From IMG/VR virus record IMGVR_UViG_3300030109_004112: a stretch of DNA of 64,000 bases. The stretch is one strand, 5' to 3'. Of the stretch, positions 17,275-47,671 are shown in pieces (position 1 is the stretch's first letter; each line of letters opens with the position of its first letter). Source of the DNA: an uncultured virus (IMG/VR IMGVR_UViG_3300030109_004112). Its lineage: Duplodnaviria > Heunggongvirae > Uroviricota > Caudoviricetes. The notes under the pieces were generated by a model, which was not told the DNA's origin, ran no database searches, and worked only from the letters and a program-made list of their open reading frames with translations. Both the position numbers and the translations under genes were made by a program.

Positions 17275-17679
17275 TCATTCAAAATCACCTACCAATCCTT
17301 CCATCAGTAGATTTTCTAGTGCTGTGTAGATGTTACACATCTCAATGTGCGAACTTCTCAGTGTAACCATGTCCTTATCTCGCAGGTCCGCTTCAAGGGA
17401 CAGTGTAATACCCATCATAATACCCCTTATGAACTCCGGACTCCATTGTTTACAGTAGTTGGATTCTATGTCCTCCATTTCATTCATAGGTTCCATAGTT
17501 TCATCCAACGAAGAGTAAAGGGCTAAAGAACGACGCCCCAAAAGAACGACGGCCAAGTTCTCCGGTGAAAGAATGTCGTTCATCTTCCTTCCGGCGGGAT
17601 TACCAGTTATCTGTCCTATCATATCCATCATCATCCTAACCCATTCATCATTGTTCTCGTCCATGAGATAAATAGTCAA
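17275..17679 (-). CDS. Hypothetical protein
   Basis: ORF in operon. Confidence 0.55.
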   Translation of the reverse strand: MTIYLMDENNDEWVRMMMDMIGQITGNPAGRKMNDILSPENLAVVLLGRRSLALYSSLDETMEPMNEMEDIESNYCKQWSPEFIRGIMMGITLSLEADLRDKDMVTLRSSHIEMCNIYTALENLLMEGLVGDFE

Positions 17680-17905
17680 ACAGTGTTGTATAGACCTTCG
17701 TTATCTCAATCTCCTTTTCTTCAATTACATATGTTACGGAACCACCCCTAGTAAATCTAGGTGATATCTCTAAACACTTCCCACATTCCTTTAGGGTTCG
17801 TGCGTACTTATCCGTCATACACCAGTCGGGCCAAGATAACCAAGTGGTATCTCCACACAACCTACCGTCGCCACTGTCTATGTGTATTTTGCTAGGGGCC
17901 CTCAT
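17648..17905 (-). CDS. Small Cys/His (Zn-binding) protein
   Basis: H...LCG...CGKC; ATGA overlap with upstream gene. Confidence 0.5.
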   Translation of the reverse strand: MRAPSKIHIDSGDGRLCGDTTWLSWPDWCMTDKYARTLKECGKCLEISPRFTRGGSVTYVIEEKEIEITKVYTTLFDYLSHGREQ

Positions 17906-33711: not shown

Positions 33712-34773
33712 TCACTCCTTGGCCTCCACCCCGAAGTATTCGGGGAGTAGGTACTCGCAAACCTTCTGAGCCTTGGAAGCCGCCGAGAAGATAAACTTCT
33801 GTCCGTCGTCCTTGGCATCCTTGATGGCTTTCAGCCATGACTTCATGTACGCCGCGTGGTTTTCCATATTCTCCTCTATGGAGGTATCTTCGATACCTAG
33901 GGCTATGCACATCATCGAGGCCGACATCTCCGCCACCAATTCCTCGTAAGCATAATCCTCACTACCGAACCGACCCGACATATCTCTATCTAGTCTTTCG
34001 GGATGTCCCGTCCAGTGAGCCATCTCATGAGAGATGGTAGCACATCGACCCGTCGGGGTCTTGAAGTGCTTCCTTTCCGGTACTTGGATATAATCTACTG
34101 CCATGTTATAGAAGGCGGAGCCTCCTCCCTCGCGGAAGTCTATCTTGTGTTCCTTCAAGAGAGAATCAATATGCTCCTCTGCTTCGGTCTTGGCCGTTTC
34201 GGTTTCCTTCTTGGTGGGCTTCTTCTTCTTGGGAATCGGCAGCCCTGTCTGAGACTTGTTGAACACCATGAAGAACCGCTGAATCCAAACGCTCCGCGTC
34301 TCCCTCTTCTTTTCTCCGGTCTTTTCGTCTTCGACTTCGTTTGTGTAGGATTTCATTTCGTAGAAGACAACCGGGAAAGATGCCTGTCCCTTCTTGACCC
34401 CATAGTAAGCCGTAGGCTTCTTCCATGTTCCGCCATCCTTCTTCGTGACTTCCTTGAACTCACCCTTCTTGACGGCATGCTTCGCTGACTCCTTCTTCCA
34501 AAAGTCGAAGGTTCCCCACTCATCACTCTTGAACCCCTCACTAGACTTGAATAACATCAAAGACCATACATTTATGCCCTTGTAAGGGGTCTTCTTTGAA
34601 CCGGTTGATGCCCTGATGGGTAGCCCATCAAGTAGTGCTCCGGCTCCGTCCCATGGCTTTTGCCAAGGACGGACGCCCCTCTTGAGTTGGTCGGTTATTA
34701 CACCGGCCACCTTCTTGTGAGCGTTCTTGGCTCTCTCTTTCGCTGTCATCTTTTTCACTTCCTTTGCTATCAT
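33712..34773 (-). CDS. ardC: ArdC-family antirestriction / ssDNA-binding protein with zincin domain
   Basis: RPWQKPW, YKGINV, WGTF, FMVFNKSQ, AFYN..DYIQVP, HEMAHWTGHPERLDR, YAYEELVAE. Confidence 0.9.
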   Translation of the reverse strand: MIAKEVKKMTAKERAKNAHKKVAGVITDQLKRGVRPWQKPWDGAGALLDGLPIRASTGSKKTPYKGINVWSLMLFKSSEGFKSDEWGTFDFWKKESAKHAVKKGEFKEVTKKDGGTWKKPTAYYGVKKGQASFPVVFYEMKSYTNEVEDEKTGEKKRETRSVWIQRFFMVFNKSQTGLPIPKKKKPTKKETETAKTEAEEHIDSLLKEHKIDFREGGGSAFYNMAVDYIQVPERKHFKTPTGRCATISHEMAHWTGHPERLDRDMSGRFGSEDYAYEELVAEMSASMMCIALGIEDTSIEENMENHAAYMKSWLKAIKDAKDDGQKFIFSAASKAQKVCEYLLPEYFGVEAKE

Positions 34774-35344: not shown

Positions 35345-35651
35345 TTATCAACTCGCCTAACTCACCTGACATATCATCCGGCTCCCCAATCGCTGCCATG
35401 CAAAAATCCATCAGTTCCGTGTGGTCGTAGGGGTCGCCATTCTCATTCATATAAATTTGCGCCGCTACGCAAGTCAGGTTGTATCTCATTTGTAGGTAGT
35501 TCTCTTTGGTTCGTTGCTGTGCCTCTGCCAGTAAAACATGTATTTCCCGCAAACTTTCAATTTCGCGGGTTTGGTCTTCCACTGTTTGGTAGAGTTCATG
35601 CAATGTCTCAAATAGTTTCTCTGCTTCATGCGTCATTCTTCTCGTCCTCAA
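35319..35651 (-). CDS. Coiled-coil hypothetical protein
   Basis: Downstream of promoter copy 8; likely start MTHEAEK. Confidence 0.55.
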   Translation of the reverse strand: MRTRRMTHEAEKLFETLHELYQTVEDQTREIESLREIHVLLAEAQQRTKENYLQMRYNLTCVAAQIYMNENGDPYDHTELMDFCMAAIGEPDDMSGELGELISEWGDRYE

Positions 35652-35665
35652 ATATACTAGGAATC

Positions 35666-35699
35666 GCTAGTTAATATACCTTTCGGTTTGGTGAGTTTT
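35666..35699 (-). promoter_or_regulatory. Conserved viral promoter element, copy 8
   Basis: Minus strand AAAACTCACCAAACCGAAAGGTATATTAACTAGC, nearly identical to copy 7. Confidence 0.8.
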
Positions 35700-35789
35700 A
35701 TCATTTATGTTACGTTTCTCTATTAGTTTTCTTGGTGGATGAATTTTCATTTTCTGCAACCGGTTTTTATGTTACTCCCATAAACGACC

Positions 35790-35828
35790 AAAAAAAATTA
35801 GGATTGGGGAGCCGAAGCCCCCCAACCC
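35790..35828 (-). terminator. Hairpin plus oligo-T terminator
   Basis: GGGTTGGGGGGC-TTCG-GCTCCCCAATCC then TAA and T8, right after ORF 35839..36123. Confidence 0.75.
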
Positions 35829-35838
35829 ATTTACGTAA

Positions 35839-36123
35839 TCAAGCGGTCAAATATTCGCCCGACTTTACCTTGGCCCTAACATCCTTTATGCTGTCCTCGT
35901 TCAAGAACTGCAATAGGTAGCGGTTAGTTGTCGCGCTGTAAAAATCCCAGTAGGGTTCATACAGGGTGACGGTTCCGTACTTCAAATCTCCAAGGCCCCC
36001 CGCCTTCGTTGCTACTTTGCTGCTGTAAGATTGGAAGGTTACGCCGTCATTAGTCTGTATTATGAACTGATTGGCCGCATATCCCCCGCTCGCGGTTCTC
36101 ATGTTTTCCACCTTCATTCTCAC
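35839..36123 (-). CDS. Phage hypothetical protein
   Basis: MKVENM...ANQFII...FQSYSSKVA...WDFYSATTNRYLLQFL. Confidence 0.65.
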   Translation of the reverse strand: MRMKVENMRTASGGYAANQFIIQTNDGVTFQSYSSKVATKAGGLGDLKYGTVTLYEPYWDFYSATTNRYLLQFLNEDSIKDVRAKVKSGEYLTA

Positions 36124-36344
36124 GCCTCCCTAGATATCACACCATCGGAAACGAGGGCATCGTAGTTCTCCATCCACGAAACCAATACATTATTAGCCTC
36201 GCCTTCGGACATGCCGTAACCGTTCATCAGGAACGGGGCCGCACCGAACATATTAGTTATGCCCGATTGCCTCAGTGCTTCAAGGTACTCGTAGTACCCT
36301 GACCATTCTTCGTTGTATGCTTTTTCATTCTTCGTTTTCTCCAT
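36120..36344 (-). CDS. Phage hypothetical protein (LRxSGxTNMF motif)
   Basis: YLEALRQSGITNMFGAAPFL; GGAGG RBS. Confidence 0.65.
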   Translation of the reverse strand: MEKTKNEKAYNEEWSGYYEYLEALRQSGITNMFGAAPFLMNGYGMSEGEANNVLVSWMENYDALVSDGVISREA

Positions 36345-36534
36345 TTCTATTCCTCCTTGTCTTGATGTAGTTGAGAGCATCAATGGTAGATTGTAGTCCA
36401 TTGTATGCTGAACCCTTTTCAATCTCGTGATTCATGAGAAGGTCTAGGGCCCTGTTTGCCCTGTCAAGGTACTCCTTGAGCATCTTGTTCTCTTCCAGTA
36501 GGTCTGCTAGGATGTCGTCATAATCGACTATCAT
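36325..36534 (-). CDS. Coiled-coil hypothetical protein
   Basis: Start MIVDYDD by ATGA overlap. Confidence 0.55.
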   Translation of the reverse strand: MIVDYDDILADLLEENKMLKEYLDRANRALDLLMNHEIEKGSAYNGLQSTIDALNYIKTRRNRNGENEE

Positions 36535-36662
36535 CGGTTGTCCCTCCATCGGGATGCTCCCTTTGAGAAGCCCACAAAAGTCCAGTTAGGACTTGAGGGG
36601 TAGCCCCAGTCGTTCAGGTCAGCCTTTGGTATCTTGCTAATGGTTCGGGTCTTTTCCGCCAT
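36531..36662 (-). CDS. Small protein (43 aa, not in ORF track)
   Basis: MAEKTRTISKIPKADLNDWGYP...; ATG 41 nt from promoter copy 9 core. Confidence 0.5.
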   Translation of the reverse strand: MAEKTRTISKIPKADLNDWGYPSSPNWTFVGFSKGASRWRDNR

Positions 36663-36682
36663 GAAACTCCTTTTTTTCTCAA

Positions 36683-36712
36683 CTACTTAATGCTTTTGCT
36701 TCGGTGAGTTTT
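36683..36712 (-). promoter_or_regulatory. Conserved viral promoter element, copy 9
   Basis: Minus strand AAAACTCACCGAAGCAAAAGCATTAAGTAG. Confidence 0.75.
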
Positions 36713-36717
36713 ACTTA

Positions 36718-37049
36718 TTATGTTACGCTTTTCTCAGAAGTTTATTTTATGTTACGCTTTTCTTTTTCTACGCGCACAAAGTCTCAAATATATGTTACGC
36801 ATAATCTTCTCTCTTTTATGTTACGTAGTTACAGGAGCCCAAAATTATGTTACGCAATTACTGGGGATAAAAAAAGAGAGCGTAACATATATCTCACTCC
36901 TCCTCCTCGCGTGGGCAGGTGACGCATCGGTACGTAACATATCTCTCGCGGGTCTGCCTGTTGAGCATCACGTATCTACTGTCTGCCCGCACGTAACATA
37001 TACAACATCGTGCGCCGAGGGGAGCAGTGGAAATCTCAAGCGTAACATA
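36718..37049. repeat. TATGTTACG box cluster (5 forward then 4 reverse)
   Basis: Forward at about 36718, 36747, 36791, 36816, 36845; reverse CGTAACATA at 36881, 36933, 36992, 37041. Confidence 0.9.
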
Positions 37050-37063
37050 TTTCTCTGAGTCTC

Positions 37064-37324
37064 TCACTCCTCCCCCTCCTTGTGTTTTTCGATTGCATCC
37101 CTCTCATAGTCTGTCAGTCTTCGGCGTGACCTACCTGACTCGTCCTCCCCCTTGAGCCGTCGATGTGCTACCATCTCTTCCGGGTACAGCATCCCTGCTA
37201 ACTCTGCCCTCGCGTGTACGCTCTGCGGCTTCATGATGAAGTCGTGGGCGAACTCTTCGGGGTCACGGCCGAGGAGGCGGCGGAAGCGTCGGACGCCTCT
37301 CTTTCGGTCTTCTGCCCTGCTCAC
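37064..37324 (-). CDS. Basic hypothetical protein
   Basis: GTGA-coupled, GAGGTGG RBS. Confidence 0.55.
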   Translation of the reverse strand: MSRAEDRKRGVRRFRRLLGRDPEEFAHDFIMKPQSVHARAELAGMLYPEEMVAHRRLKGEDESGRSRRRLTDYERDAIEKHKEGEE

Positions 37325-37590
37325 GCTTCCACCTCCTCTATACGTCCTTCCACCCACCAATCATACCAATCCTTGTAATCCAAAGACGCCTCACCTATGC
37401 AAAATATCGGCAGGTAATCGGTCGGACACCTGCGGTATCCTTGCGCCCTATCCCACTTTCTGACGGCTAGCAGGGATTCGTGAAATTTTTCTGCGGTGGG
37501 CCAGTAGTCGGTAATTTCTAAGACCATTTGCCGCGCTCTTTCGATTTGCCACCGTGATGATTTTTTCATCAGCCTTCGCGTTTTTCTCAT
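37321..37590 (-). CDS. Hypothetical protein
   Basis: ATGA-coupled. Confidence 0.55.
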   Translation of the reverse strand: MRKTRRLMKKSSRWQIERARQMVLEITDYWPTAEKFHESLLAVRKWDRAQGYRRCPTDYLPIFCIGEASLDYKDWYDWWVEGRIEEVEA

Positions 37591-38036
37591 GACTCACACC
37601 CCCCGCACACGGCTTGTGAATAGTCCTTGGGATTGACTCGGCTCATGACGTGCAACGGGCCGCGACCCTTGCACCTCACACACGCCGCGTATCTGCCGTG
37701 TATGATGCCCGGAGGTAGGATTGAGACTAGTGCCCAATCCCACCCGGTCTTTTTCTTTCGGCGGGCCGCTCGCTTTCTTGCCGCTGCTGCCCTTGCTATT
37801 TTTGCCCGTCTTTGGGCGGCTGCCGCCGCGAGCGTCATTTGCTCCGCGTCGCTGGTGGCGTGGTTTGTGTTCCCCTTCCGGTCAGAGTACGACCGCGACA
37901 GCACACACGTCTTGTAATGCTGACGTGATGGGCAGCCGCACGGCCGCCTCTTGATGTTGCCCCGGCCGGAGCCGCCGCTGTTCCCCTTGGCGCGGCTGTC
38001 GCCCTTGGCCCCCTTGGTGATGACTCGCTTGGTCAT
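37587..38036 (-). CDS. Highly basic Cys-rich putative nucleic-acid-binding protein
   Basis: CGC..H..C, AAAARKRAARRKKK helix, CVRC...CGGC. Confidence 0.55.
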   Translation of the reverse strand: MTKRVITKGAKGDSRAKGNSGGSGRGNIKRRPCGCPSRQHYKTCVLSRSYSDRKGNTNHATSDAEQMTLAAAAAQRRAKIARAAAARKRAARRKKKTGWDWALVSILPPGIIHGRYAACVRCKGRGPLHVMSRVNPKDYSQAVCGGCES

Positions 38037-38239
38037 GCGAGACACCCCCTCTTACAGTTAGGGCACTTTTCGGGATAGTCATCATCAAGAATCCACAGAG
38101 GGGAGCCGTACTCGTCCAGTGTCTTCCCGTCCCAAGTCTTCCCGGTCCTATGGGGGAAAATGAAACAGGCGTCTTCTAGGTGAAAGTGATAGTCGCACCA
38201 CTCCAACCCTCCACGGCATCTAATGATGGGGCTGCTCAC
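38033..38239 (-). CDS. Small Zn-finger protein
   Basis: C...C...CPNC; coupled overlaps. Confidence 0.5.
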   Translation of the reverse strand: MSSPIIRCRGGLEWCDYHFHLEDACFIFPHRTGKTWDGKTLDEYGSPLWILDDDYPEKCPNCKRGCLA

Positions 38240-38529
38240 GATTCATCACCCCCGACCATCAGAGCCGCTATCGTGGCGGCCCACTCTTCACCTTCCTTTG
38301 AAGGCATCTCGGCATTCAGTCTCTCACGGCGGGCGGCTAGTGTATCACTAACACGCGCCCGTACATGTGAGGCCCTCACACCCAACCGGGAAAAGTCCCG
38401 GCGTGGGTTGAGGGGTATGGCATCTAACTCACCTGCTGCGCAAACCGAGCAAAGTACGAATCCCTCGGGGGGGATAACATACGATGCGGGCCGGCTGCAT
38501 GAGCAGGTGGGCGGTGTGTCTCGGCGCAT
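38236..38529 (-). CDS. Zn-finger protein; first gene of leftward transcription unit
   Basis: CSC...LCSVC; follows promoter copy 10. Confidence 0.55.
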   Translation of the reverse strand: MRRDTPPTCSCSRPASYVIPPEGFVLCSVCAAGELDAIPLNPRRDFSRLGVRASHVRARVSDTLAARRERLNAEMPSKEGEEWAATIAALMVGGDES

Positions 38530-38565
38530 TTTTCTGTCCTCACATATAGCAGGGAGCCGGCGGTC

Positions 38566-38592
38566 TATAAACTTTGGGGTCTGGTGAGTTTT
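38566..38592 (-). promoter_or_regulatory. Conserved viral promoter element, copy 10
   Basis: Minus strand AAAACTCACCAGACCCCAAAGTTTATA. Confidence 0.7.
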
Positions 38593-38597
38593 ACGTA

Positions 38598-39600
38598 TTA
38601 TGTTACGTTTGGGGTTTTTGGGGTTATTATGTTACGTTTAGATAGTTTTTATGTTACGCATATAAGATATTATGTTACGCACACATCGGAACATCAGCAC
38701 TCTTTTATGTTACGCGACCTTTTTTTGCGGTTCTGTCTTTTCTGTTACGCCGACGGTCCGAGTCTTATGTTACGCTCACTGCTAGCCTACGAAATATATG
38801 TTACGTTTTCACTGAGAAAAATATCACAACTGGTAACTTTATGTTACGCATACGGACCCTAGGAGCGATGGGGTAACATAAACTCTGCGTCTGAATCTCA
38901 AAAATATGTTACTCCCTCCCCCCACCCCCCGCTTCTTTTTCTCGATAGGGGGTTTTCGTAACATAATCTTGTTGCCTGTGCGTAACATAACGAACCGGTT
39001 CGGGTAACATAATTTTGCCGGAGCAGCGAGCGTTATGTTACGTTTTGGGGGGGTGGTTTTTTTCGACCGGGGCAAACTCGCCAGTTTGCGTAACATAATG
39101 CTTGTCGTAACATAACGCTACACCGTATTAGTTTTTTATGTTACGCCTCTCTTTTTTCTGAAATTGGGCTTTTTGTAACATAACGTAGTACGGCTTATAA
39201 GGTTTGCCCGTAACATAACGTTCAAAAAAAGTAACATAAAATTGGCTTTCAGTAAAGCGTTATGTTACGTTTTCGGCCTCGCTCGCTCACACCCCCCCTC
39301 TCAGGCCCAAAAAAAATGAGTACTTAAAGGGCGTAACATAACGCTTCACTGAACCCCAAAATTATGTTACGTTGGGTTAATTAATAACTGAGCGTTATGT
39401 TACTCCCCCAAACGACCTAAAGACTATATACCCCCTAGCAGATGATTAACCCCGGACGCGCTTGAAAATTATGTTACTCCCTAGCCGGTGGTTCAGGCGG
39501 GCTCACGTAACATAACGCTTCACCATATCCCAAAATTATGTTACTCCAACACCCTTACCACGGAGACGCAAAGTGGGTTCGCGTTGAAAATTATGTTACT
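38598..39600. repeat. Main TTATGTTAC(G/T) box array, about 29 copies in both orientations
   Basis: About 18 forward and 11 reverse copies counted by eye in a 1-kb non-coding gap between divergent transcription units. Confidence 0.92.
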
Positions 39601-39610
39601 CCATGATATC

Positions 39611-39628
39611 GGCAAAGGTATAAGTACT
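39611..39628 (+). promoter_or_regulatory. BRE/TATA promoter for rightward genes
   Basis: GGCAAAGGTATAAGTACT about 25 nt before ATG 39649. Confidence 0.55.
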
Positions 39629-39648
39629 AGTGAAAAACAGGGAGATTC

Positions 39649-39930
39649 ATGGGAGGAAAGCAAACCATAACATTGAGCAATGTTGAAATGAGTATCGTAT
39701 ACCACGCGCTACTCACGAGACTAAGCGAGATGATGAGAGAAGACGACAAGAACGAACGCCGAGAGAGGGAGGTGGCAGAGTTGACGGCCATAGTTGACAG
39801 TATGCAACAGCAGATGGAAAGCAACTGGTCGGAGATAGAGGCCGACGCCGCCTTTGAGAGAGAGACGGAGGGAGTAAGACTCCTATCGTCAATCCCCGCC
39901 TTCGGAGACAAGACGGAGGACATGGCATGA
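39649..39930 (+). CDS. Helical hypothetical protein
   Basis: ORF after TATA; ATGA-coupled to next gene. Confidence 0.6.
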   Translation: MGGKQTITLSNVEMSIVYHALLTRLSEMMREDDKNERREREVAELTAIVDSMQQQMESNWSEIEADAAFERETEGVRLLSSIPAFGDKTEDMA

Positions 39931-40214
39931 GTACCAAGGAAACTAGGGACATGGTATACCTTCAGATGGTACTATCGTTCATAGAAACGAGTACCCCCGC
40001 GAAGTACGCGGAACTGCAAAACACAGTAGAGCAAATGCAGACCATCGACCCAAGACACGCTGAGATGTATGCGACGATTGGGAAGACCTTGGAGACACTG
40101 CGCGACAAACTGTGGACGGGCGTGGACGTGAATGGAGAGGTGAGTTGGATGGTAAAGTCACTATCCAAGAGCCAAAAGAGGACGTTGTACGGGGAGGACG
40201 GCGAAAAGGAGTAG
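39927..40214 (+). CDS. Hypothetical protein
   Basis: GGAGG RBS; followed by hairpin. Confidence 0.6.
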   Translation: MSTKETRDMVYLQMVLSFIETSTPAKYAELQNTVEQMQTIDPRHAEMYATIGKTLETLRDKLWTGVDVNGEVSWMVKSLSKSQKRTLYGEDGEKE

Positions 40215-40225
40215 GTCAGACTAAC

Positions 40226-40253
40226 GGGGGTCGGCTGGTGGTGGCCGGCCCCC
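40226..40253 (+). terminator. GC-rich hairpin after 39927..40214
   Basis: GGGGGTCGGCT-GGTGGT-GGCCGGCCCCC. Confidence 0.5.
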
Positions 40254-40317
40254 CAACAATATGTTACGCAACAAAAGAAAGAAAATATGATAAGGAGTGA
40301 TAAAGACGAAAGGATGA

Positions 40318-40518
40318 GTGAAACGTATGACAGCGAACACTGAAGAAGAAATGACGAACGGAGATATAGTGGCTTGTTTAGCATGCCACTGTTTGATTGC
40401 CTTGGAGGAGGGTTACTGGCAGAGAACCACGATAGCCAAGTACCCTATGCCCAACTCGGTTGGGACCTTAGTAGCGTTCTGTGATGAATGCAATATGGTC
40501 GTTGAGGTGGGCTACTAG
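40318..40518 (+). CDS. Small Zn-finger protein
   Basis: CLAC...FCDEC; start uncertain. Confidence 0.45.
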   Translation: MKRMTANTEEEMTNGDIVACLACHCLIALEEGYWQRTTIAKYPMPNSVGTLVAFCDECNMVVEVGY

Positions 40519-40527
40519 ATACTAAAA

Positions 40528-40691
40528 TATGTTACGCACCACTTGGATAAATCCGGACTAAAAATCCGTTTTCTAATCAAACATATGTTACGCGGTTTTT
40601 TACTAGACGATATGTTACGTCTCTTTTTTGTAGGCATTATGTTACGCCTCTTTTTCTGTGAGTGATATGTTACGCTTGGCGTTATGTTACG
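40528..40691 (+). repeat. TATGTTACG direct-repeat cluster (6 copies, plus one at 40260)
   Basis: Copies at 40528, 40584, 40611, 40638, 40666, 40683. Confidence 0.9.
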
Positions 40692-41084
40692 TCCCAGTGA
40701 CCACTAATGAACCGAAGGTTGTATAGTGAAATGACCAACCTAATTGTGAACACTGGTAGGTTAGAACCTGCTTCTGTGATACTGCGAAATTGGCCGAATT
40801 TCCGCTATCGTGACCCGCGAATTATCGTTGATTTGCTTATAAGGGCCGGACTTGAAAAATGGGTCCGGAAATGCGAAATCACCGGGAGAAACTACCCAAT
40901 GGCCCCAAACACGGCGACAGGTGCGCCAAATCGCCCAATGCAGCCAAATAACCCATATTATGCACATATCGCGTATGTCGTGAATATGGGGTCAGATGGG
41001 CAGGGGGCATATAGTCTTTCGCTGTTCATGCTCACCCCCGCATCAAATCCGGCGTTTATAGGGGGGTCACGCGTAAGAGGAGGC

Positions 41085-42362
41085 ATGGCAGGTACACCAC
41101 CAACCACCATAGGAGACACGCCGGGAACGACCCCGGCCCTATCCGTCTTGGACGTGATGAACGTCCCGAGGGAGGTCATCTTGACTTCCCTCGCGTTCAT
41201 CGGCTCCTTGATTGATAGGATGATTGCAGAGACAGCCAGCAAAGCCGGACTGATGAAGGCCCTCAGGAGCATGGGCGTCAAGGGCAGTACGCTCAAGACC
41301 CTCAGGGACCGCATCGTTGAGCGAGCAGGTCAGACCTACGAGGTACGAACATGGCCGACAGTACTCACCATGAAGCAAGCCGAGAAGTTTGCTGCGGCGG
41401 GTGTGTTCTCGGAGATTGTCGGACAGGGACAGAGGTTCGTTGAGAACAAGGGTCAACACGATGTCCGACTAGACCGGGCCGAGAAGGTAGCCAAGGAACT
41501 CAACCAGCCGCTGCTTGATGGCTGGTCCGATTGGATGGCAACCCGCACATGGGTTGATGCTCCCTACGTGCTGATTAACTCCCTCGGAGTGAATGCGACC
41601 GTGTTCAACGAGTGGGCAGAGGGTCAGTATGGAGAGAACCAGTATTCACCCAAGATGACCGGGGCCATGCTGGAAGGAGAGCGAGGGTTCACCCTCACCG
41701 ACCGGGAGGGCTCAAAGAGCGACTTCCAGCAGGGAGCGCGGGACGGCTGCGCCAAGAACCTCAACACCAAGACCGGCGAGATGAAGATTAGGCCTGTATG
41801 CACCGACATGGCAGGGAGGCCAGCGTTCAACGCTGCTCACGACCTAAGCGGTCAGTGCCGAGTCTGTGGGGGCAAGGTGGCGAGTGTCTACCGGCACGAT
41901 ATCGCAACCCGCAACAATCAGACCTTGAAGATGCCATGCCTCCTCAAGCATAACCAGCCCGGACCCAATGGGGGAGATGGCAAGTTATCCACGACCCGCA
42001 GGGCATCAAGCGGGAACTGGGGCCACTCGGTTCAGGTCGGCTACAACTGCCCGACAGGAGCAAGGACGGCAGCGGGCAAGAAGGTTCGCAAGGTCCGCAG
42101 GGCGAGCGGTGGATACGAGCGGTTCATCTTCACCGTGAGAGACCATGACGAGGAGGGGGAGCCATACGAGTTCCACCTTCTAGGACGGGCCTTCGTGGAG
42201 GGCTGGCACAGAGGCAACGAGAAGGACATTCTCGGCACCGACGCCGAGTACCTCTTGTGGATTGCCAACCGCACCCACTGGGACGACTCAACCCCGGCAT
42301 GGAAGACCCCAAGGGGGACTCGCATCAACTCAGAGGTTGACGCGGTCCTCGGGGCTCTCTGA
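41085..42362 (+). CDS. GC-rich hypothetical protein (425 aa)
   Basis: Start refined to ATG 41085 (TTTATA at 41055, GAGGAGG RBS); CRVC motif; followed by hairpin. Confidence 0.7.
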   Translation: MAGTPPTTIGDTPGTTPALSVLDVMNVPREVILTSLAFIGSLIDRMIAETASKAGLMKALRSMGVKGSTLKTLRDRIVERAGQTYEVRTWPTVLTMKQAEKFAAAGVFSEIVGQGQRFVENKGQHDVRLDRAEKVAKELNQPLLDGWSDWMATRTWVDAPYVLINSLGVNATVFNEWAEGQYGENQYSPKMTGAMLEGERGFTLTDREGSKSDFQQGARDGCAKNLNTKTGEMKIRPVCTDMAGRPAFNAAHDLSGQCRVCGGKVASVYRHDIATRNNQTLKMPCLLKHNQPGPNGGDGKLSTTRRASSGNWGHSVQVGYNCPTGARTAAGKKVRKVRRASGGYERFIFTVRDHDEEGEPYEFHLLGRAFVEGWHRGNEKDILGTDAEYLLWIANRTHWDDSTPAWKTPRGTRINSEVDAVLGAL

Positions 42363-42672: not shown

Positions 42673-43038
42673 TCAATCACTCGTAATCTTGCCTATATTG
42701 GCGGCGGGAGGTTTATTCCCCCGTATCTTCCCGTCTGCCACCCTATAGTACTTCAAACGGCTTTTTTTGAAGGTTTCAATGTTGTAAGGCTTGATGTAAC
42801 TGCGTATGAGGCTTCCTACGGTGTGTCCGTTCATAGGAGTCCAGTGCTTTGACAGTTTCTTATTAAGATTCCATGCAATCTCATGCGAAGTCCTCCATTC
42901 CGAGAAAAAACCACTATCCAACAACTCCACTATCTCTCTTTTGATTATATCCTTTCTCTTTAGTGGTCCAGTCTTCCCACTCTTACAGCCGTGCCCCGTT
43001 TGAAGCGTTCCGGTTCTATTGTAGTATCCCTTACTCAT
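42673..43038 (-). CDS. Winged-helix DNA-binding protein downstream of terL
   Basis: IVELLDSG...WRTSHEIAWNLN...MNGHTVGSLIR; AGGTGA RBS. Confidence 0.6.
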   Translation of the reverse strand: MSKGYYNRTGTLQTGHGCKSGKTGPLKRKDIIKREIVELLDSGFFSEWRTSHEIAWNLNKKLSKHWTPMNGHTVGSLIRSYIKPYNIETFKKSRLKYYRVADGKIRGNKPPAANIGKITSD

Positions 43039-43042
43039 TAAA

Positions 43043-44539
43043 TCACCTGTCGATTACTCCGCTCACTCCGCCTCTACTACGATTGATACGGCCTTTGTTA
43101 ACTCCGCCTAACCACTCGCCGCCCTTCGCCGTACCCAATACCACGGGCATTCCGTTATCCTTAACCGAAAATTGGTCTATTGCGTGAGCGAGTGCCATAA
43201 CTGTATCGTTATGTCTTCCCAAATCAACAATCAAACCATTACGCCAAGCGTGACTTTCCAATTCCTCTAGAACAATATTGATTTGAGTTCTTGTTTCGTG
43301 ATTACCATAAGGGAATATCACCAATTCTCTTTCAAGCCAAACCCTAAGCCTATTTAGAAGTCCTTGCTTCAAAGTCCTATTACCAACCTTACTTTCTCTA
43401 TAATCTACCATAGCACCCTTCTGAGTAAGAAGACTCTCGTATAATTGTTGAAATCCTACGGATTCGACGGCAAATGCCGGTGTCCCGTATCTCTTATTCC
43501 AGTCTATCATCATATTGGCCTGTTTGTCAGGAGGAAAGTCGTTTCTCCTCCACATATTCACAAAATGAATAAACCCTTCGTCATCTTGCCTTAAGCAAAT
43601 CATTACGCTATAATCCTGACCTAATCCATGAGCAGGGTCAAAACCGACAGAATATCTGTGGTTGTACTGTTTATCCGGTTCTAATAAAGAATCTATATCC
43701 AAATTAGCCCTTGTGATATTACGGGGATAAACTGCGGCGTCATCGTCTATAACCTTACAGAGATACTCCTGTATGAAGGAGAGGTCCCCCATGGCTTGTC
43801 TTTGCTCAAGTAAGAATGCTAAACTCCTAAACTCCGGCCATAGTGCTTTGGGCTCTACATTTTCCGGGTCTGCCCTCCAATCATCCCAATTTGGAATACT
43901 AGACCATACCCCGCTTTTCCATGTATCATTATCTAACATCTCTGTATGATATAGGTCATTCATACTCATAGGTGTCCCAACGACATAAATTGCGGTTCCG
44001 GGGCTCAACATCGGTGTAACCTTCTTCCTAAACCATTGTTGTGTGTTTTTAGGGTCTAAATCCCCACTATCGTCCAATACGTCATCAAAAGCGATACAGG
44101 CAGGGTGCTCACCACGAATAGCAGCCCCAACCGAAGTTGCACGAATCCATGCACCATTAGTGAATCTTAATTCTAGTTTATTTCCCCTACGGGGGTCCAA
44201 ATACCTAGAAAGTTGCGGGTGTCTCTTCATATCTTCTCTTATCTCTTCAAGACGCCTTGCAGCCAAATCTTTGCTAGCAGAAAAGAGCCAACAAGTAAAG
44301 GGCTTGTTCCTCCACTTATCAAATAGGGCATGATGCAATAATTTGACTCTTAGAGTAGTAGATTTACTGTGGTCACGAGGAGCAATCACACAAACCCTAT
44401 GAACCTGTGTATCACCGCGTTTACCATACATATCCATCCATTCACCAATATGGTCGCCCCAAGTATAGCCAAGCCAACGATAGAAATATTTATCGTCGTA
44501 TTTTGCCCTTTCCATGGAAAAGGAAAGAAAATCACTCAT
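43043..44539 (-). CDS. terL: Terminase large subunit
   Basis: APRDHSKST (Walker A), IRGEHP, IAFDDVLDD (Walker B), VGTP, nuclease GFDPAHG..DYSV, HNDTVMALA. Confidence 0.92.
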   Translation of the reverse strand: MSDFLSFSMERAKYDDKYFYRWLGYTWGDHIGEWMDMYGKRGDTQVHRVCVIAPRDHSKSTTLRVKLLHHALFDKWRNKPFTCWLFSASKDLAARRLEEIREDMKRHPQLSRYLDPRRGNKLELRFTNGAWIRATSVGAAIRGEHPACIAFDDVLDDSGDLDPKNTQQWFRKKVTPMLSPGTAIYVVGTPMSMNDLYHTEMLDNDTWKSGVWSSIPNWDDWRADPENVEPKALWPEFRSLAFLLEQRQAMGDLSFIQEYLCKVIDDDAAVYPRNITRANLDIDSLLEPDKQYNHRYSVGFDPAHGLGQDYSVMICLRQDDEGFIHFVNMWRRNDFPPDKQANMMIDWNKRYGTPAFAVESVGFQQLYESLLTQKGAMVDYRESKVGNRTLKQGLLNRLRVWLERELVIFPYGNHETRTQINIVLEELESHAWRNGLIVDLGRHNDTVMALAHAIDQFSVKDNGMPVVLGTAKGGEWLGGVNKGRINRSRGGVSGVIDR

Positions 44540-45980
44540 CAGCCATCACCGGAGAATAAAGACTCCCGACAATACCTTGTTCCCTATCTATTAAATGAGC
44601 AAACATTCCGGGTCGGCTAATGAAGCCCTTTCTGAAATGGTATCTATCATGACCCGCTAAACTAGGAAGTTGTATTACGAAACAATTCCCCTTCTCAATC
44701 ATATGAGTGTGATGCTTATGTCCGTGGAACCAAATGTGGTTTTCTGTCTCTCCCCATTCCTTTCTCTTCTCATTACCCATAATAAGGGGTAGGTTTTGAC
44801 CACTAACGAAATCGCCATGGGTAAAGCCCATAAGATTGTCTCCCCACTTGATATATTGCCTGAGAGACGGGTCCTTTGTTACTGTTACTCTAGAATCGTT
44901 TTCGTATGTTGCGCTTAGGAACATCATTAGACCCAAACTAGCGAATCTATCATGATTACCCATCATAAACACAATCTCTACTGGGGCCACACTTTTTAAC
45001 ATTTCAATATGCTCAACAGCCAATTCACAGCCTTCCATAAGTATTTGTGCTGGTGTTCCGGCCATATCCTGTCCGGTACCTCTAGTTGTAGTGCCCAAGT
45101 CATTATCAACATGGAACCAGTCACTTCCAGTAGCAAGAATTATTTTTTCTGGGGCTCCGGGTAGTCGTTGTAATAAGGTAAAGGTCTTATCTAATAGTCG
45201 CTCACGAGCAATTTCAAAGTTGTATGATTCTCCGACCTCTAAAGACCAGCCATACTTCCCATAATGCAAATCTGTAGGGGAAATGACTAGGGCATAGTCA
45301 CTTTCGGCTTTCCCCATGGGGACCGCATGTACTTCATCTATGATTATGGTTTTCTCCTTTAGTATCTCTCTAAAATCAGAAAGAATAGTTTCTTCTAGGG
45401 TACGATACTTGTTCGCATCCCTTTCTATGCTCTTCCTGTGTTTCTCCTCTACCTTACCGAGAATATCCTTTTTCTTTAGTGTAAGTAAGTCCTTAACCAA
45501 GGAATCTGTGTCACCATCTATTATCTCTTCATCAGTAAATGGATTCATGTTATGAGTCCAGCCATATGCCCTGATATAGCCCTTTATCCAAAGAGTGGGC
45601 ATTTCAAACTTAGTGACCATTTCCTCTACAGAAAGGTTTTCTAGCATAGAACAATAAGCCTTACGCATTTCTCGATGCTTTTCGCCATTTAGAATTATTA
45701 AATCGTTTACTCCGTCAATGTAGGTGATGTATTTATCATTTTCCTTATCATAGTATGTATGTGTACGTTGAGGGATTTCGTCGGGCATTGTTTGTGTTAG
45801 TAGCCTGTACGAATTACCCTTTTTCACCCATCTCGATACGGCAACCCTCCAAGCGTCAGCACTTCGGCGTGGCTCTATTTCGTGGAGATACCTGCCGAAA
45901 TCGCTATTACTACTATAGCCCCTATCCTTGTACTTCTCAATTAAGTCTTGGTTGTCTATGAAGTGTTCCCCCATGAACAT
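44532..45980 (-). CDS. Calcineurin-like metallophosphoesterase with N-terminal extension
   Basis: TDLHYGK, GSDWFH, GNHD, THGD, HGHKHH. Confidence 0.85.
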   Translation of the reverse strand: MFMGEHFIDNQDLIEKYKDRGYSSNSDFGRYLHEIEPRRSADAWRVAVSRWVKKGNSYRLLTQTMPDEIPQRTHTYYDKENDKYITYIDGVNDLIILNGEKHREMRKAYCSMLENLSVEEMVTKFEMPTLWIKGYIRAYGWTHNMNPFTDEEIIDGDTDSLVKDLLTLKKKDILGKVEEKHRKSIERDANKYRTLEETILSDFREILKEKTIIIDEVHAVPMGKAESDYALVISPTDLHYGKYGWSLEVGESYNFEIARERLLDKTFTLLQRLPGAPEKIILATGSDWFHVDNDLGTTTRGTGQDMAGTPAQILMEGCELAVEHIEMLKSVAPVEIVFMMGNHDRFASLGLMMFLSATYENDSRVTVTKDPSLRQYIKWGDNLMGFTHGDFVSGQNLPLIMGNEKRKEWGETENHIWFHGHKHHTHMIEKGNCFVIQLPSLAGHDRYHFRKGFISRPGMFAHLIDREQGIVGSLYSPVMADE

Positions 45981-46258: not shown

Positions 46259-47671
46259 ATGGCGGAGCGTAAGTGGTATCAATTTTGGGGAAAACAGCCA
46301 GTTTTGGCGAAATCAGCAAGGGTACCTACGAATAAGACCTTCACGGTGGCAGCGGGAATACCCGATATTGTAAGAGATACCGAGAGGCTTCGTTCAGACA
46401 ACAAATTCGATAATGAGTTCGACCTTTACGATAGTATGCTGCTTCTTGACCCGGAATTGAACGGTGCAGTAAGGGCCGTGAGCCTAACGGCCAATAACTA
46501 CACCATTAACTACTCAAGAGGAAAAAACGCAGCCATAAGAGAGGCACTCAAAGAATTAGTAGAAGAAAGGCTACCCTTTGACGATTTCCTAATTAATGCC
46601 ATGCGTGGATTAATGGTATATGGTAACGACATCAATAAGATAGTCGGAAAGGAAAATATTGGGGTGACAAAACTACAATCACTGCCAGTTAAGCAAGTAA
46701 CAATAGTGGATAGTAGGGGAGGACCCGGTTCCTACTTCAATGCGGACGAAGACACCCCAATCGTCAACCCAACCGAATATTTACTGAGAGAAGGTACTTC
46801 CAACGAACAATCCTTTCCCGCCAATGAAGTTCTTCATGTGCGTATAGACTACAGAAGCAATTGGTTCGTGGATAACAAAGGTCGTACCTCCTATGGTATA
46901 TGGGGGGCTTCTAGATTCACCGCCCTAAAGCAACCTATACGCATGAAGTATAACAGCCTAAACAATCGACTTTCCCTTGAAGATTCGATGACTAAGCAGT
47001 ATATCACCATAGACAAGTCTGCTATCGAGCACATCCAAGACCCTGCGGAGCAATCCGAGAGACTAACATATATCATTGATGAAATAGTTTCCTTGTTTGA
47101 GGGTCTACGTGGCGACCAAATACCTGTTTTGCCTCATTATGTGAAATTACAGCATATTGACTTGGAGAACAGTCTTCCAAACAGCGGTGATTTCCTAGAT
47201 GCAATAAACGCTGATATTGCGGCTGTTTTGCAGGTTCCCCGTGTTGCATCCGGTCAAGAGCGCGGGTCAACCTTCGCGGCAACCTACAATGCTAACTTGT
47301 GGGCAGTTGGGGCAATTAGCCGAATGCACCGCATCCTAACAGAGTCGTGCCAAAGGATTTTCTCTCTGCATTTAGACCTGCTAGGAATACCACACCGCAC
47401 ACAAGACCTTCCCACCATAACCTTTGAAACTATGGATACCGAAACCCCACTAGATGTTATGAAGAGGGCCACACTTGGTTACAGCAACGGTATCGTAACC
47501 TTGAATCAAGCACTAGACATCCTCAACCTACCTATGATTGGAAAGGAAGGGGAAGAGCGACTAAGCGTGAGTAGTCCCGAAAGCATAGGACCCACACAGG
47601 ACGAGAACTCCCAACCCGGTAATAAAAACGACGAAGAAACACAAGAAAACCGCGAAAGGGAAGTTGAGTAA
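46259..47671 (+). CDS. Portal protein
   Basis: 470 aa, first gene of head operon; LMVYGN, QSLP, EVLHVR, IAAVLQVP, GIVTLNQA pattern. Confidence 0.85.
   Translation: MAERKWYQFWGKQPVLAKSARVPTNKTFTVAAGIPDIVRDTERLRSDNKFDNEFDLYDSMLLLDPELNGAVRAVSLTANNYTINYSRGKNAAIREALKELVEERLPFDDFLINAMRGLMVYGNDINKIVGKENIGVTKLQSLPVKQVTIVDSRGGPGSYFNADEDTPIVNPTEYLLREGTSNEQSFPANEVLHVRIDYRSNWFVDNKGRTSYGIWGASRFTALKQPIRMKYNSLNNRLSLEDSMTKQYITIDKSAIEHIQDPAEQSERLTYIIDEIVSLFEGLRGDQIPVLPHYVKLQHIDLENSLPNSGDFLDAINADIAAVLQVPRVASGQERGSTFAATYNANLWAVGAISRMHRILTESCQRIFSLHLDLLGIPHRTQDLPTITFETMDTETPLDVMKRATLGYSNGIVTLNQALDILNLPMIGKEGEERLSVSSPESIGPTQDENSQPGNKNDEETQENREREVE

Follow-up and report, generated by a model that had tools for sequence, protein, structure and literature searches.

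The stoperators of Cluster A mycobacteriophages are short asymmetric sites, tens of them in each genome, that are recognized by a monomer-binding phage regulator. Sites and regulator diverge together, which gives each lineage a private specificity, and the sites are scattered genome-wide and oriented with transcription. Clusters of short sites are also found at origins, where opposed groups of sites surround the place of DNA opening in lambda, P4, staphylococcal islands and archaeal origin boxes. The genes for the small and large terminase subunits are usually adjacent, and the pac and cos sites described so far extend over a few hundred bp. Genome maintenance systems that are built on site arrays include TubR on tubC, EBNA1 on the family of repeats and E2 in the papillomavirus control region. 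The recombination site dif has two ~11-bp arms and a central region of 6-8 bp.

We compare with these systems a repeat array in a 64,000-nucleotide stretch of DNA (hereafter the window) from the IMG/VR record IMGVR_UViG_3300030109_004112. The virus is a marine tailed virus of ~70 kb that encodes an archaeal-type clamp loader, and its host is probably archaeal. Its large terminase subunit (TerL) and PolB have less than 25% identity to those of any named virus. Knowledge of marine archaeal tailed viruses comes solely from metagenomes, and their regulation is almost unknown. Such arrays are not mentioned in main-text passages on repeats and origins of two magrovirus papers (PMC5434244, PMC11706807) or in main-text passages of a paper on archaeal tailed viruses (PMC8651126), and a wider literature search on such arrays returned nothing relevant. 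As described below, the word array is shared across an entire family of tailed viruses that are uncultured, marine and probably archaeal.

The repeated word and its surroundings

There are 50 copies of the word TATGTTAC in the window compared with 2.17 expected, and 46 of them are located between 35706 and 40690 (35.7-40.7 kb). The main array (38599..39599) is gene-free, carries 28 copies of TATGTTAC/GTAACATA (17 in plus and 11 in minus orientation), and separates a leftward from a rightward gene block. Small ORFs predicted in this array were rejected as artefacts because every one begins at an ATG that is internal to the motif. In a second array (36719..37049), five plus copies are followed by four minus copies to form two opposed groups, which are flanked by the end of the minus-strand gene 37064-37360 and by a leftward promoter block. 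Two plus-strand sites (35706..35775) are flanked on one side by a terminator-like hairpin (35828-35801, minus) and on the other by the beginning of the next leftward gene. Six direct plus-strand copies (40528..40690) are located directly upstream of ORF 40707-42362, and a single additional copy (40260-40267) lies outside this group. Small ORFs of the virus include 37587-38045, 38033-38239, 38236-38529, 39649-39930, 39927-40214 and 40318-40518.

Three leftward units in the window are headed by a common 44-nt block that bears a site. The representative preceding the first leftward gene (38567..38610, minus) comprises a site, GTAAAACTCACC, AAAG and a TATA-like box, and other copies occur at 35674-35717 and 36687-36730, with an identity of 73-80% within this family. 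These features suggest that the block is a putative promoter. A second type of putative promoter is formed by a site and a TATA-like box (GGTATAAG) at 39591..39648 (plus), which precede the rightward ORF 39649-39930. The TATA-like boxes, located near 38570, 36690, 35677, 39618 and 39428, were identified by eye. Distances in the window from site centre to gene start are 74 nt for the starts at both 35636 and 38529, 54 nt for 39649 and 20 nt for 40707. Site orientation ignores the direction of the nearby gene, with 31 of 46 sites facing the same way both left and right of the divergence.

Five sequence variants within the array were found in other samples, and all of them are located outside the 9-mers. 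A search for sigma-70-type bacterial promoters found none (6.5 expected), a tRNA search found none, an Rfam search of 35-41 kb gave no match, the region was found in no RNA sequencing run, and no match was found between GenBank phages and the array DNA.

Inverted pairs with a fixed spacer

A pattern search of the window for GTAACATAA-N(10-40)-TTATGTTAC yielded six matches, compared with none in each of 100 shuffles. The spacer is N20 in five of these, and the sixth match (39090-39144) is a nested overlap. The original prediction had described five units with 20-nt spacers. These are real, but its starts were 1 nt too low, and the units begin at 39004, 39107, 39231, 39333 and 39507. It had also described the units as polar, with CGCT at one spacer end and an A/T tetramer at the other, and indeed all five spacers conform to CGCT-N12-WWWW when the CGCT end is placed first. 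Re-reading the spacers recovered the same series of orientations (-, +, -, +, +). The CGCT end is on the right in U1 (39004..39041, minus), which has the form GTAACATAA-N20-TTATGTTAC, and in U3 (39231..39268, minus), and it is on the left in U2 (39107..39144, plus). U3 is 86% complementary over 42 nt to U4 (39333..39370, plus), which has the same arm pattern as U1, and U5 (39507..39544, plus) is 90% identical to U4 over 39 nt. The middle of the U2 spacer has two A>T variants in sequencing run X3 (39127 and 39130). A sixth unit (38873..38912) has the 22-nt spacer first ascribed to it, but it starts at 38873 and has an imperfect right arm (ATATGTTAC), so that it matches eight of nine arm bases.

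Among the 27 neighbour pairs of the main array, six are of the '><' type and five of these six have a start-to-start distance of 30, which is absent from all main-array pairs other than these five. At least five equal '><' distances arose in 84 of 100,000 orientation shuffles. U3, U4 and U5 have 6-9 of the 12 middle spacer bases in common, whereas U1 has only 1-2 in common with any other unit and U2 has 1-7. Judging from these spacers, the units are partly paralogous, so that the constant length is seen in approximately three spacer sequences that are independent of one another.

When folded as single-stranded DNA, the units form 9-11-bp stems with open 20-nt loops (-4 to -8 kcal/mol). We rejected the possibility that the units are a structured hairpin element because such stems follow from the inverted arms alone. 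A weak helical-phasing signal of 10.75 bp in the main array is reached by 0.8% of jittered nulls and is partly driven by the five equal gaps. Phasing at the level of the window was found in none of the relatives tested, where the lowest null fraction was 0.076.

When IMG/VR was scanned with the unit pattern and with direct pairs as queries, the scan retrieved only the virus's own two contigs along with chance or unrelated matches. Among the matches listed for the metagenome scan, an unrelated 41-nt palindrome from gut metagenomes was dominant.

Lineage-specific words and the gene beside terminase

Relatives, of which there are 157 by TerL, were found by using the terminase large subunit gene (43043..44539, minus) as an anchor. 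In the 36 loci of relatives in which 3 kb or more of sequence follows TerL, the most frequent 8-mer reaches 8 copies in 30 loci, 10 copies in 22 and 15 copies in 19. In the control sequence upstream of TerL (47 loci), the same thresholds are reached in 1, 0 and 0 loci, respectively. The repeated 8-mers are present in 8-79 copies, and they differ between lineages (GTTACAAAA, GTTACATAA, GCTACAAAT, ACTACATAA, GTTACAAT, TTACCAACAAAT, AAATCCAAAT and others). Each complete relative has one word region, which holds 23 of 25 copies within 1.1 kb in G004 and 43 of 44 copies within 3.8 kb in G006, and in each the dense gene-free locus of ~1 kb is single. The sites of G006 form opposed groups of 11 and then 7 around a 35-nt centre, a layout like that at 36719-37049 in the window, and G004 has site triplets with a 17-bp period in both orientations.

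The gap within inverted pairs is fixed in each lineage, a comparison that rests on relatives with different words. This gap is 22 in five of six pairs in the window, 0 in all 11 pairs of G003, 2 in all seven pairs of L202, and 4 in nine of ten pairs of L219 and four of five pairs of L240. Longer gaps resembling that of the window occur in G004 (22 and 23), L223 (23, 23 and 43) and L221 (21). The random spacing in relatives that the original prediction had named as counter-evidence was not found, with gaps of 0, 2 or 4 in some lineages and 21-24 in the window and three others.

Sites also recur at preferred distances from start codons. In G003, site centres lie 48 nt ahead of the ATG in 5 of 12 ORFs and 60 nt ahead in 3. 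In L219 the distance is 46 nt in 3 of 8 ORFs, and in L240 it is 46 nt in 3 of 13 ORFs and 38 nt in 2. Thus, the commonest distance in these three relatives is 46-48 nt, ahead of small genes, and no single preferred distance was found in L201 and L202. In G003, successive small genes are preceded by a module composed of a site, N27, a 16-bp palindrome, N29, a second site, N16, a TATA-like box, N20 and the ATG. L219 has a similar module, and such gene-linked modules are spread over 5-8 kb.

A winged-helix protein is encoded by the only gene family on the array side that is conserved by BLAST, with members in 74 of 79 loci. In the window, this gene (42673..43038, minus; 121 amino acids) begins 4 nt downstream of the terminase gene, and the distance is no greater than ~30 nt in the loci examined. 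We consider it the best candidate for the motif binder. The protein identified as a candidate binder in the original prediction, ORF 41085 within the 551-amino-acid ORF 40707-42362, is private to the window virus. Members of the winged-helix family have 80-170 amino acids, and the shortest homologues (80 amino acids) consist of the winged helix alone with no oligomerization part. Identity among relatives is 28-42% for the winged-helix protein versus 66-76% for TerL.

An AlphaFold2 model of the window protein has a core with pLDDT >90, three helices and a beta-hairpin wing, as well as disordered ends. Foldseek matches are winged helices of the ArsR, PadR and MecI types (best E 0.024), and weak matches include TubR chains at ranks 24 and 47 (E ~0.1-0.2). 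All ESM Atlas matches to this protein score below 0.9, and an HMM search against PDB sequences gave nothing below an E value of 0.37. In a weak covariation test that takes TerL distance into account, motif distance and winged-helix distance have a partial r of 0.25 across 14 lineages with hand-aligned words, a value that is reached by 144 of 5000 permutations. There are also near-identical recognition helices with different words, such as TTACCAACAAAT in L165 versus other words in the L213-L232 group.

Possible functions and comparison with known systems

Our tentative preference is that the words are operator or activator sites for a virus-encoded winged-helix protein that controls early promoters, and that the 38-bp units are a split-palindrome form of these sites, a reading that is partly inferred and that we hold at slightly below even confidence. 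The units would be one arrangement of a private word of 9-10 bp, (T)TATGTTAC(G), which is repeated 46 times in a 5-kb control region. A sequence-specific DNA-binding protein encoded by the virus would dock on these words, the best candidate being the fast-evolving winged helix after terminase, wherein one word binds one winged-helix domain. The form predicted to be bound by the 42673-43038 protein is TTATGTTACG. Through words located directly upstream of their TATA-like boxes, the protein would switch the promoters of small, probably early, genes on or off, and the dense 1-kb array at the point of leftward and rightward divergence might gather many copies of it. Each unit, made up of one CGCT-flanked word and one A/T-flanked word, would be a split palindrome in which the two words face each other via their A/T-rich ends, as in the 16-20-bp palindromes of the relatives, but are placed approximately two helical turns further apart. 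We infer that the winged helix is the binder, that its effect is on transcription, by activation or repression, and that the gene-free array has the role given above.

The earlier proposal, namely that the units resemble protein-binding sites of constrained geometry, is supported. Fixed distances between site and promoter or start, as expected of operators, were found in G003, L219 and L240 and in the window, where the 74-nt distance occurs twice in the common block. Initiator or packaging roles are possible, and are less well supported than transcription control because of the site-ATG distances that recur in three relatives. However, a gene-free array of 1 kb with 28 sites far exceeds the needs of a promoter, and the largely uniform orientation is unusual for an activator, which would have to be turned toward the transcription machinery. 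In addition, the mere 4 nt between terminase and the winged-helix gene points to a packaging protein or to late expression.

The words could instead be the sites of a virus-specific origin-binding protein, with the opposed groups flanking the place of DNA opening, which we judge to be unlikely. The single dense, gene-free locus of ~1 kb in each complete relative and the concentration of sites in one region in G004, G006 and the window are as expected of an iteron cluster. The opposed groups of G006 and of the second array in the window, as well as the G004 triplets, also fit, the leftward block of replication genes begins at the array, and initiator-origin pairs typically have lineage-specific words. 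However, no initiator or helicase-loader family was recognized when 27, 38 and 22 window proteins were compared with Pfam, PHROGs and NCBIfam; Rep, Orc1/Cdc6, helicase-loader and primase-helicase families were all lacking among the scanned proteins, many of which have no family at all. A lone winged helix of 80 amino acids is small for an initiator, and no long A/T-rich unwinding stretch is evident by eye in the window. Cumulative GC-skew minima track gene-strand blocks rather than arrays, being located at 62 kb in G004 (array at 54.5-55.5), 57 kb in G006 (48.6-51.7) and 46 kb in the window. The minima of G004 and G006 are thus 5-7 kb away from the arrays, where the strand switch of an origin would be expected. 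Nor would an origin explain why modules extend over 5-8 kb, with one for each small gene and a constant spacing to the ATG. This extent, together with the gene-tied nature of the modules, also argues against pac or cos sites at which the winged helix serves as the small terminase subunit and the array as the packaging start, a distinctly unlikely reading despite the close placement of the small DNA-binding gene downstream of TerL. No other candidate for a small terminase was found, and fast winged-helix evolution with lineage-specific words fits packaging specificity, but the shortest homologues appear to lack an oligomerization part. Of two IMG/VR contigs that belong to this virus, one ends (38532) and the other begins (39397) at the array, as packaging would predict. 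However, the second begins within a motif copy, as would happen if assembly broke at repeats. The far ends of the two contigs overlap by 139 nt, which indicates a circular or permuted map of ~70 kb, and contigs assembled from runs X1 and X2 are colinear through the whole array.

This colinearity is relevant to recombination, wherein the units would be dif/Xer-like or invertase sites and opposed units would permit inversions, as had been suggested. The units do occur in both orientations, and the original prediction likened the half-site 9-mer to one arm of bacterial dif. However, dif is one constant site per replicon with a central region of 6-8 bp, whereas the window has 50 copies, spacers of 20 nt in five units and 22 nt in one, and a word that changes between viral lineages. 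No recombinase was found among the scanned window proteins, in agreement with the original prediction. Assembled contigs from four runs, which miss rare forms, molecule ends and depth, contain no inversion or deletion between units and no strand-changing joint in the array. We therefore regard recombination as largely refuted and give it almost no weight. A function in genome maintenance, in which the winged helix coats a centromere-like array and so tethers or segregates a persisting episome, would agree with tens of sites in one locus for one small winged-helix protein and with TubR being among the weak Foldseek matches. It is nevertheless very improbable, given that this fold match is generic, that the scanned window proteins include no partition ATPase or GTPase family, and that nothing points to a carrier state or to integration.

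The preferred operator reading could be part of a private addressing system in an abundant family of marine archaeal viruses, although we consider this extension unlikely. Every lineage would use a 9-bp word of its own (25-80 copies in one region) and a matching winged helix that is co-transcribed with terminase, and the pair would perform several tasks, namely the switching of early promoters and the marking of the genome for replication or packaging. If true, there would be no cross-talk among co-infecting relatives, which would amount to an immunity-group code for archaeal viruses, and the jump in gap between lineages, from 0-4 to 21-24 bp, would indicate that two bound proteins contact each other in a different way. 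The lineage-word control region, its candidate reader and the spacing predictions provide a handle that is testable with synthetic parts and without host culture. As a sequence mark, the arrays could also be used to sort lineages and to predict cross-regulation in co-infection, and they explain why assemblies of viruses in this family break at the array locus.

Compared with dif and the archaeal Xer site, the locus differs in copy number, spacer length, the lineage-variable word and the lack of a recognized recombinase. The sites of small terminases, such as the cosB R sites of lambda bound by gpNu1 and the P1 pac hexamers, are similar in being short repeats in both orientations and in their association with a small winged-helix gene beside the large terminase gene, which adjoins TerL here as well. 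Unlike those sites, the words are greater in extent and number, are arranged in gene-tied modules, and are accompanied by 80-amino-acid homologues that appear to have no oligomerization domain. Iteron origins (P4 ori/crr, the ori of staphylococcal pathogenicity islands and plasmid Rep-iteron systems) likewise have clusters of short repeats in both orientations with an element-specific sequence and one main locus per genome, whereas here there is no recognized initiator gene, the copies are far more numerous (25-82) and recur at set distances before many small genes, and GC skew is unsupportive.

The papillomavirus long control region with E2 and the EBV oriP family of repeats are alike in having many sites in a non-coding region of ~1 kb for one viral DNA-binding protein. 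Palindromic sites whose internal spacer is fixed are a further shared feature. Most of the sites described here, however, are single asymmetric words, the spacer class varies between lineages (0-4 versus 21-24), and the virus realm and protein fold are different.

For the stoperators of Cluster A mycobacteriophages, which are sites of L5-type repressors, the comparison draws on parts of two papers (PMC6550527, PMC9283540). The sites of the window are clustered and predominantly of one orientation rather than dispersed and oriented with transcription. They are packed in one region of 1-8 kb with fixed-spacing inverted pairs and dense gene-free arrays, they ignore gene direction, the host is probably archaeal, and the candidate protein is a plain winged helix. 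The likeness to stoperators lies in the tens of short asymmetric sites, presumably for one virus-encoded regulator, and in their lineage-private specificities.

Repeat units and word clusters in the window

The pattern GTAACATAA-N(10-40)-TTATGTTAC occurs six times in the window but not once in 100 shuffles. In five of the six, the spacer is exactly 20 nucleotides long, as originally predicted, and the starts lie one base higher than first given (39004, 39107, 39231, 39333 and 39507); the remaining match, with its start at 39090, is nested and overlapping. Written from its CGCT end, each of the five spacers has the form CGCT-N12-WWWW (W is A or T), and therefore the units are polar, in the predicted orientations -, +, -, + and +. 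Positions 38400-40200, inspected directly, also contain the additional unit with a 22-nucleotide spacer, at 38873, with an imperfect right arm.

The core word TATGTTAC has 50 copies in the window (2.17 expected; shuffle maximum 5), and 46 of these fall in five clusters: 35706-35768 (2 copies), 36719-37042 (9 copies, five '+' then four '-'), the main array at 38599-39592 (28 copies), 40260 (1 copy) and 40528-40683 (6 copies). One of the four copies outside this control region, at 17730-17737, is located upstream of the first ORF (17275-17679) of the gene block running from clamp loader to polymerase. This placement may be due to chance, given that 2.2 copies are expected in the window.

The main array lacks a credible ORF and matches no Rfam family. 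Among its 27 neighbour pairs, six have their A/T-rich ends facing, and a neighbour distance of 30 is found five times, always in such facing pairs. Five equal facing distances are reached in only 84 of 100,000 orientation shuffles of the array. To some extent the units are duplicates: the fourth and fifth are 90% identical, and the third and fourth are 86% complementary over 42 nucleotides. In the middle 12 spacer bases, the first unit matches the others at only 1-2 positions and the second at 1-7. Because these spacer middles differ from the rest, the exact spacer length is seen to have persisted in about three spacer sequences that are unrelated.

Contigs from two sequencing runs (X1 and X2) span the array without rearrangement, and two runs from other studies (X3 and X4) carry near-identical pieces of the region. 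There are five array differences among runs (38889, 38974, 39127, 39130 and a C inserted after 39168), all of which fall outside the 9-mers, an outcome with a chance of about one in four by our own arithmetic. Immediately to the left of the array, positions 38002-38276 are a micro-diversity hot spot with numerous short alternative contigs in X1 and X2, and X2 also includes a form lacking 197 nucleotides (38037 to 38235). Two GC-rich blocks between word arrays (about 58% GC versus 45% for the window) have the appearance of DNA recently inserted into this region. One, at 40707-42362, is a 551-amino-acid ORF absent from all relatives; in the other, at 37064-38529, small cysteine-rich ORFan genes follow one another, including one for a very basic 152-amino-acid protein.

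Arrays in related viruses

A terminase scan of IMG/VR yielded 157 relatives, of which 80 were kept at 66-78% identity; the window's own twin contig is one of the 80 and is excluded from the counts. The commonest non-trivial 8-mer was counted in loci with at least 3 kb on the given side of the terminase gene. On the downstream side (36 loci) it reaches at least 8 copies in 30 loci, at least 10 in 22 and at least 15 in 19, versus one, none and none, respectively, of the 47 loci on the upstream side. The words of different lineages are not identical, yet they are alike: GTTACAAAA (79 and 65 copies in two loci), GCTACAAAT (an 8-mer of which has 82 copies in 8 kb of relative G003), ACTACATAAC (67), CGTTACAAT (50), GTTACATAA (43), TTACCAACAAAT (29-33), AAATCCAAAT (24) and others beyond these. 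In CheckV-complete records the word is restricted to a single region, with 23 of 25 copies within a gene-free 1.1 kb in G004 and 43 of 44 within 3.8 kb in G006. On the terminase-sense strand, the commoner word orientation is G-T/C-W-A-C-A-W-A in the window and nine loci (L163, L201, L202, L206, L207, L214, L219, L223 and L240), which may simply be due to descent and tandem duplication.

Similar sequences also occur elsewhere. L145, an apparently unrelated 7.7-kb viral contig in IMG/VR, carries 10 copies of GTAACATAAC(T/G)TAACA in 300 bp at its start (1-400); this array contains the 8-mer of the window too, probably by chance. A 41-nucleotide perfect palindrome with the same half-sites (L249-L326), with many gut-metagenome contigs among the matches listed, is unrelated to the window virus.

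The gap between the 8-mers of neighbouring sites with facing A/T-rich ends is constant inside each lineage. It is 22 in five of six pairs in the window (24 in the sixth), 0 in 11 of 11 in G003, forming a perfect 16-bp palindrome, 4 in 9 of 10 in L219 and 4 of 5 in L240, 2 in 7 of 7 in L202, 22 and 23 in G004, 23, 23 and 43 in L223, and 21 in L221. Since the gaps per lineage fall at 0-4 or 21-24, there are two gap classes, about two helical turns apart. Random spacer lengths among relatives, named in the original prediction as evidence against it, were not found; the lengths are fixed per lineage.

Sites also recur before gene starts. In G003, one module is repeated before successive small genes (site, N27, palindrome, N29, site, N16, TATA-like box, N20, ATG), and a hairpin with a T-run lies between each of these genes and the preceding one. 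Each small gene of L219 is preceded by a palindrome and then tandem 12-bp repeats. Measured mechanically from the site centre, the distance to the ATG is 48 nucleotides for 5 of 12 ORFs and 60 for 3 of 12 in G003, 46 for 3 of 8 in L219, and 46 for 3 of 13 and 38 for 2 of 13 in L240; L202 and L201 have no single favoured distance. In the window, a common 44-nucleotide block (site, GTAAAACTCACC, AAAG, TATA-like box) opens three leftward units, and the distance is 74 nucleotides at 35636 and 38529, 54 at 39649 and 20 at 40707. A terminator-like hairpin (35828-35801) precedes two sites at 35706-35775.

The virus and a candidate reader protein

The window encodes a family-B DNA polymerase (10691-12913, minus), a clamp loader (16285-17262, minus), a PD-(D/E)XK nuclease, a large terminase (43043-44539, minus), an Mre11/SbcD-like exonuclease (44532-45980, minus), a portal (46259-47671) and a collagen-repeat tail fibre. 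The margin of the small-ORF region is occupied by the gene for an ArdC-like anti-restriction protein that includes a zincin peptidase domain (33712-34773), a position that fits an early, counter-defence gene block. The majority of the remaining proteins have no family match, and the 2375-amino-acid product of ORF 505-7632 lacks a Pfam or PHROG match.

The clamp loader is nearest to archaeal RFC small subunits (1iqp, E 6.7e-35; versus about 1e-10 for T4 gp44 and about 1e-8 for the bacterial gamma subunit), and the named viruses that best match the polymerase are haloarchaeal tailed viruses, with 22-24% identity. There are no sigma-70-type promoters in 35400-40800 (6.5 expected from shuffles), which fits a non-bacterial host, and TATA-like boxes, read by eye, lie about 25-38 nucleotides upstream of first-gene starts. 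From these features we infer an archaeal virus. Runs with the region are labelled marine, seawater, sediment and sponge metagenomes, many of which share only a small part of its sequence words. The same virus is represented by two IMG/VR contigs, one ending at window position 38532 and the other beginning inside a word copy at 39397. Their far ends, which meet about 2.3 kb ahead of the window, overlap by 139 nucleotides at 98.6% identity (2 differences), so that the map comes out as circular or permuted, at about 70 kb.

BLAST detects conservation of just three gene families in the neighbourhood of the arrays, and on the array side the loci have no further family in common. The three are the exonuclease (45-58% identity in 74 loci), the terminase (66-76% in 78-79 loci) and a small protein encoded directly after the terminase gene. 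The small protein was detected in 72 loci by the window query, with identities of 28-42%, and in 74 by clustering; L219 was added by eye. When 32 of its homologues are aligned, a conserved core of about 80 amino acids emerges. Its AlphaFold2 model, with a mean pLDDT of 80 that rises above 90 for residues 30-100, contains three helices plus a beta-hairpin, and thus the protein is predicted to be a winged helix. Foldseek returns ArsR/SmtB, PadR, MecI/BlaI and Cdt1-type winged helices (best E 0.024); the sequence libraries searched give no match. Across 14 lineages with words aligned by hand, word distance and winged-helix distance have a partial r of 0.25 with terminase distance held constant, a value reached in 144 of 5000 label permutations, and the reverse partial (word versus terminase, winged helix held constant) is -0.19. 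This covariation, to which there are counter-examples, weakly backs the protein as a candidate reader.

Possible functions and known systems

As a general statement, the sites are very probably lineage-specific protein-docking sites. Their role is less certain. The reading that ranks best, at somewhat less than an even chance, is that a virus-encoded reader controls early promoters, since this accounts for the modules before individual genes and for the repeated distances between sites and start codons. The gene-free 1-kb array, the orientation common to 31 of 46 sites whichever side of the divergence point they lie on, and the location of the regulator gene 4 nucleotides behind the terminase gene all fit it less well. 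A single dense locus with opposed groups of sites might instead be a replication origin, but no initiator was found among the window proteins scanned and GC skew tracks gene direction; we consider this unlikely. We consider a packaging site more doubtful still: the winged-helix gene position and fast evolution are in its favour, whereas the sites are too widely spread and no oligomerization part is apparent in the model or in the shortest homologues.

A maintenance array seems improbable, and a recombination site hardly deserves consideration. Neither a dif/Xer role nor the inversions envisaged between oppositely oriented units stands up against the copy number, the spacing, the lineage-specific words and the colinear contigs. 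Whatever likelihood is left belongs to something else or to a combination of readings, and transcription control remains our preferred one.

No description of such arrays was found in the passages that term searches brought up from PMC5434244, PMC11706807 and PMC8651126, or in wider literature listings. As multi-site systems, they resemble stoperators, iteron origins and viral long control regions. The combination here is of a private word, one packed region and two pair-spacing classes in an archaeal-type virus family represented exclusively in metagenomes.
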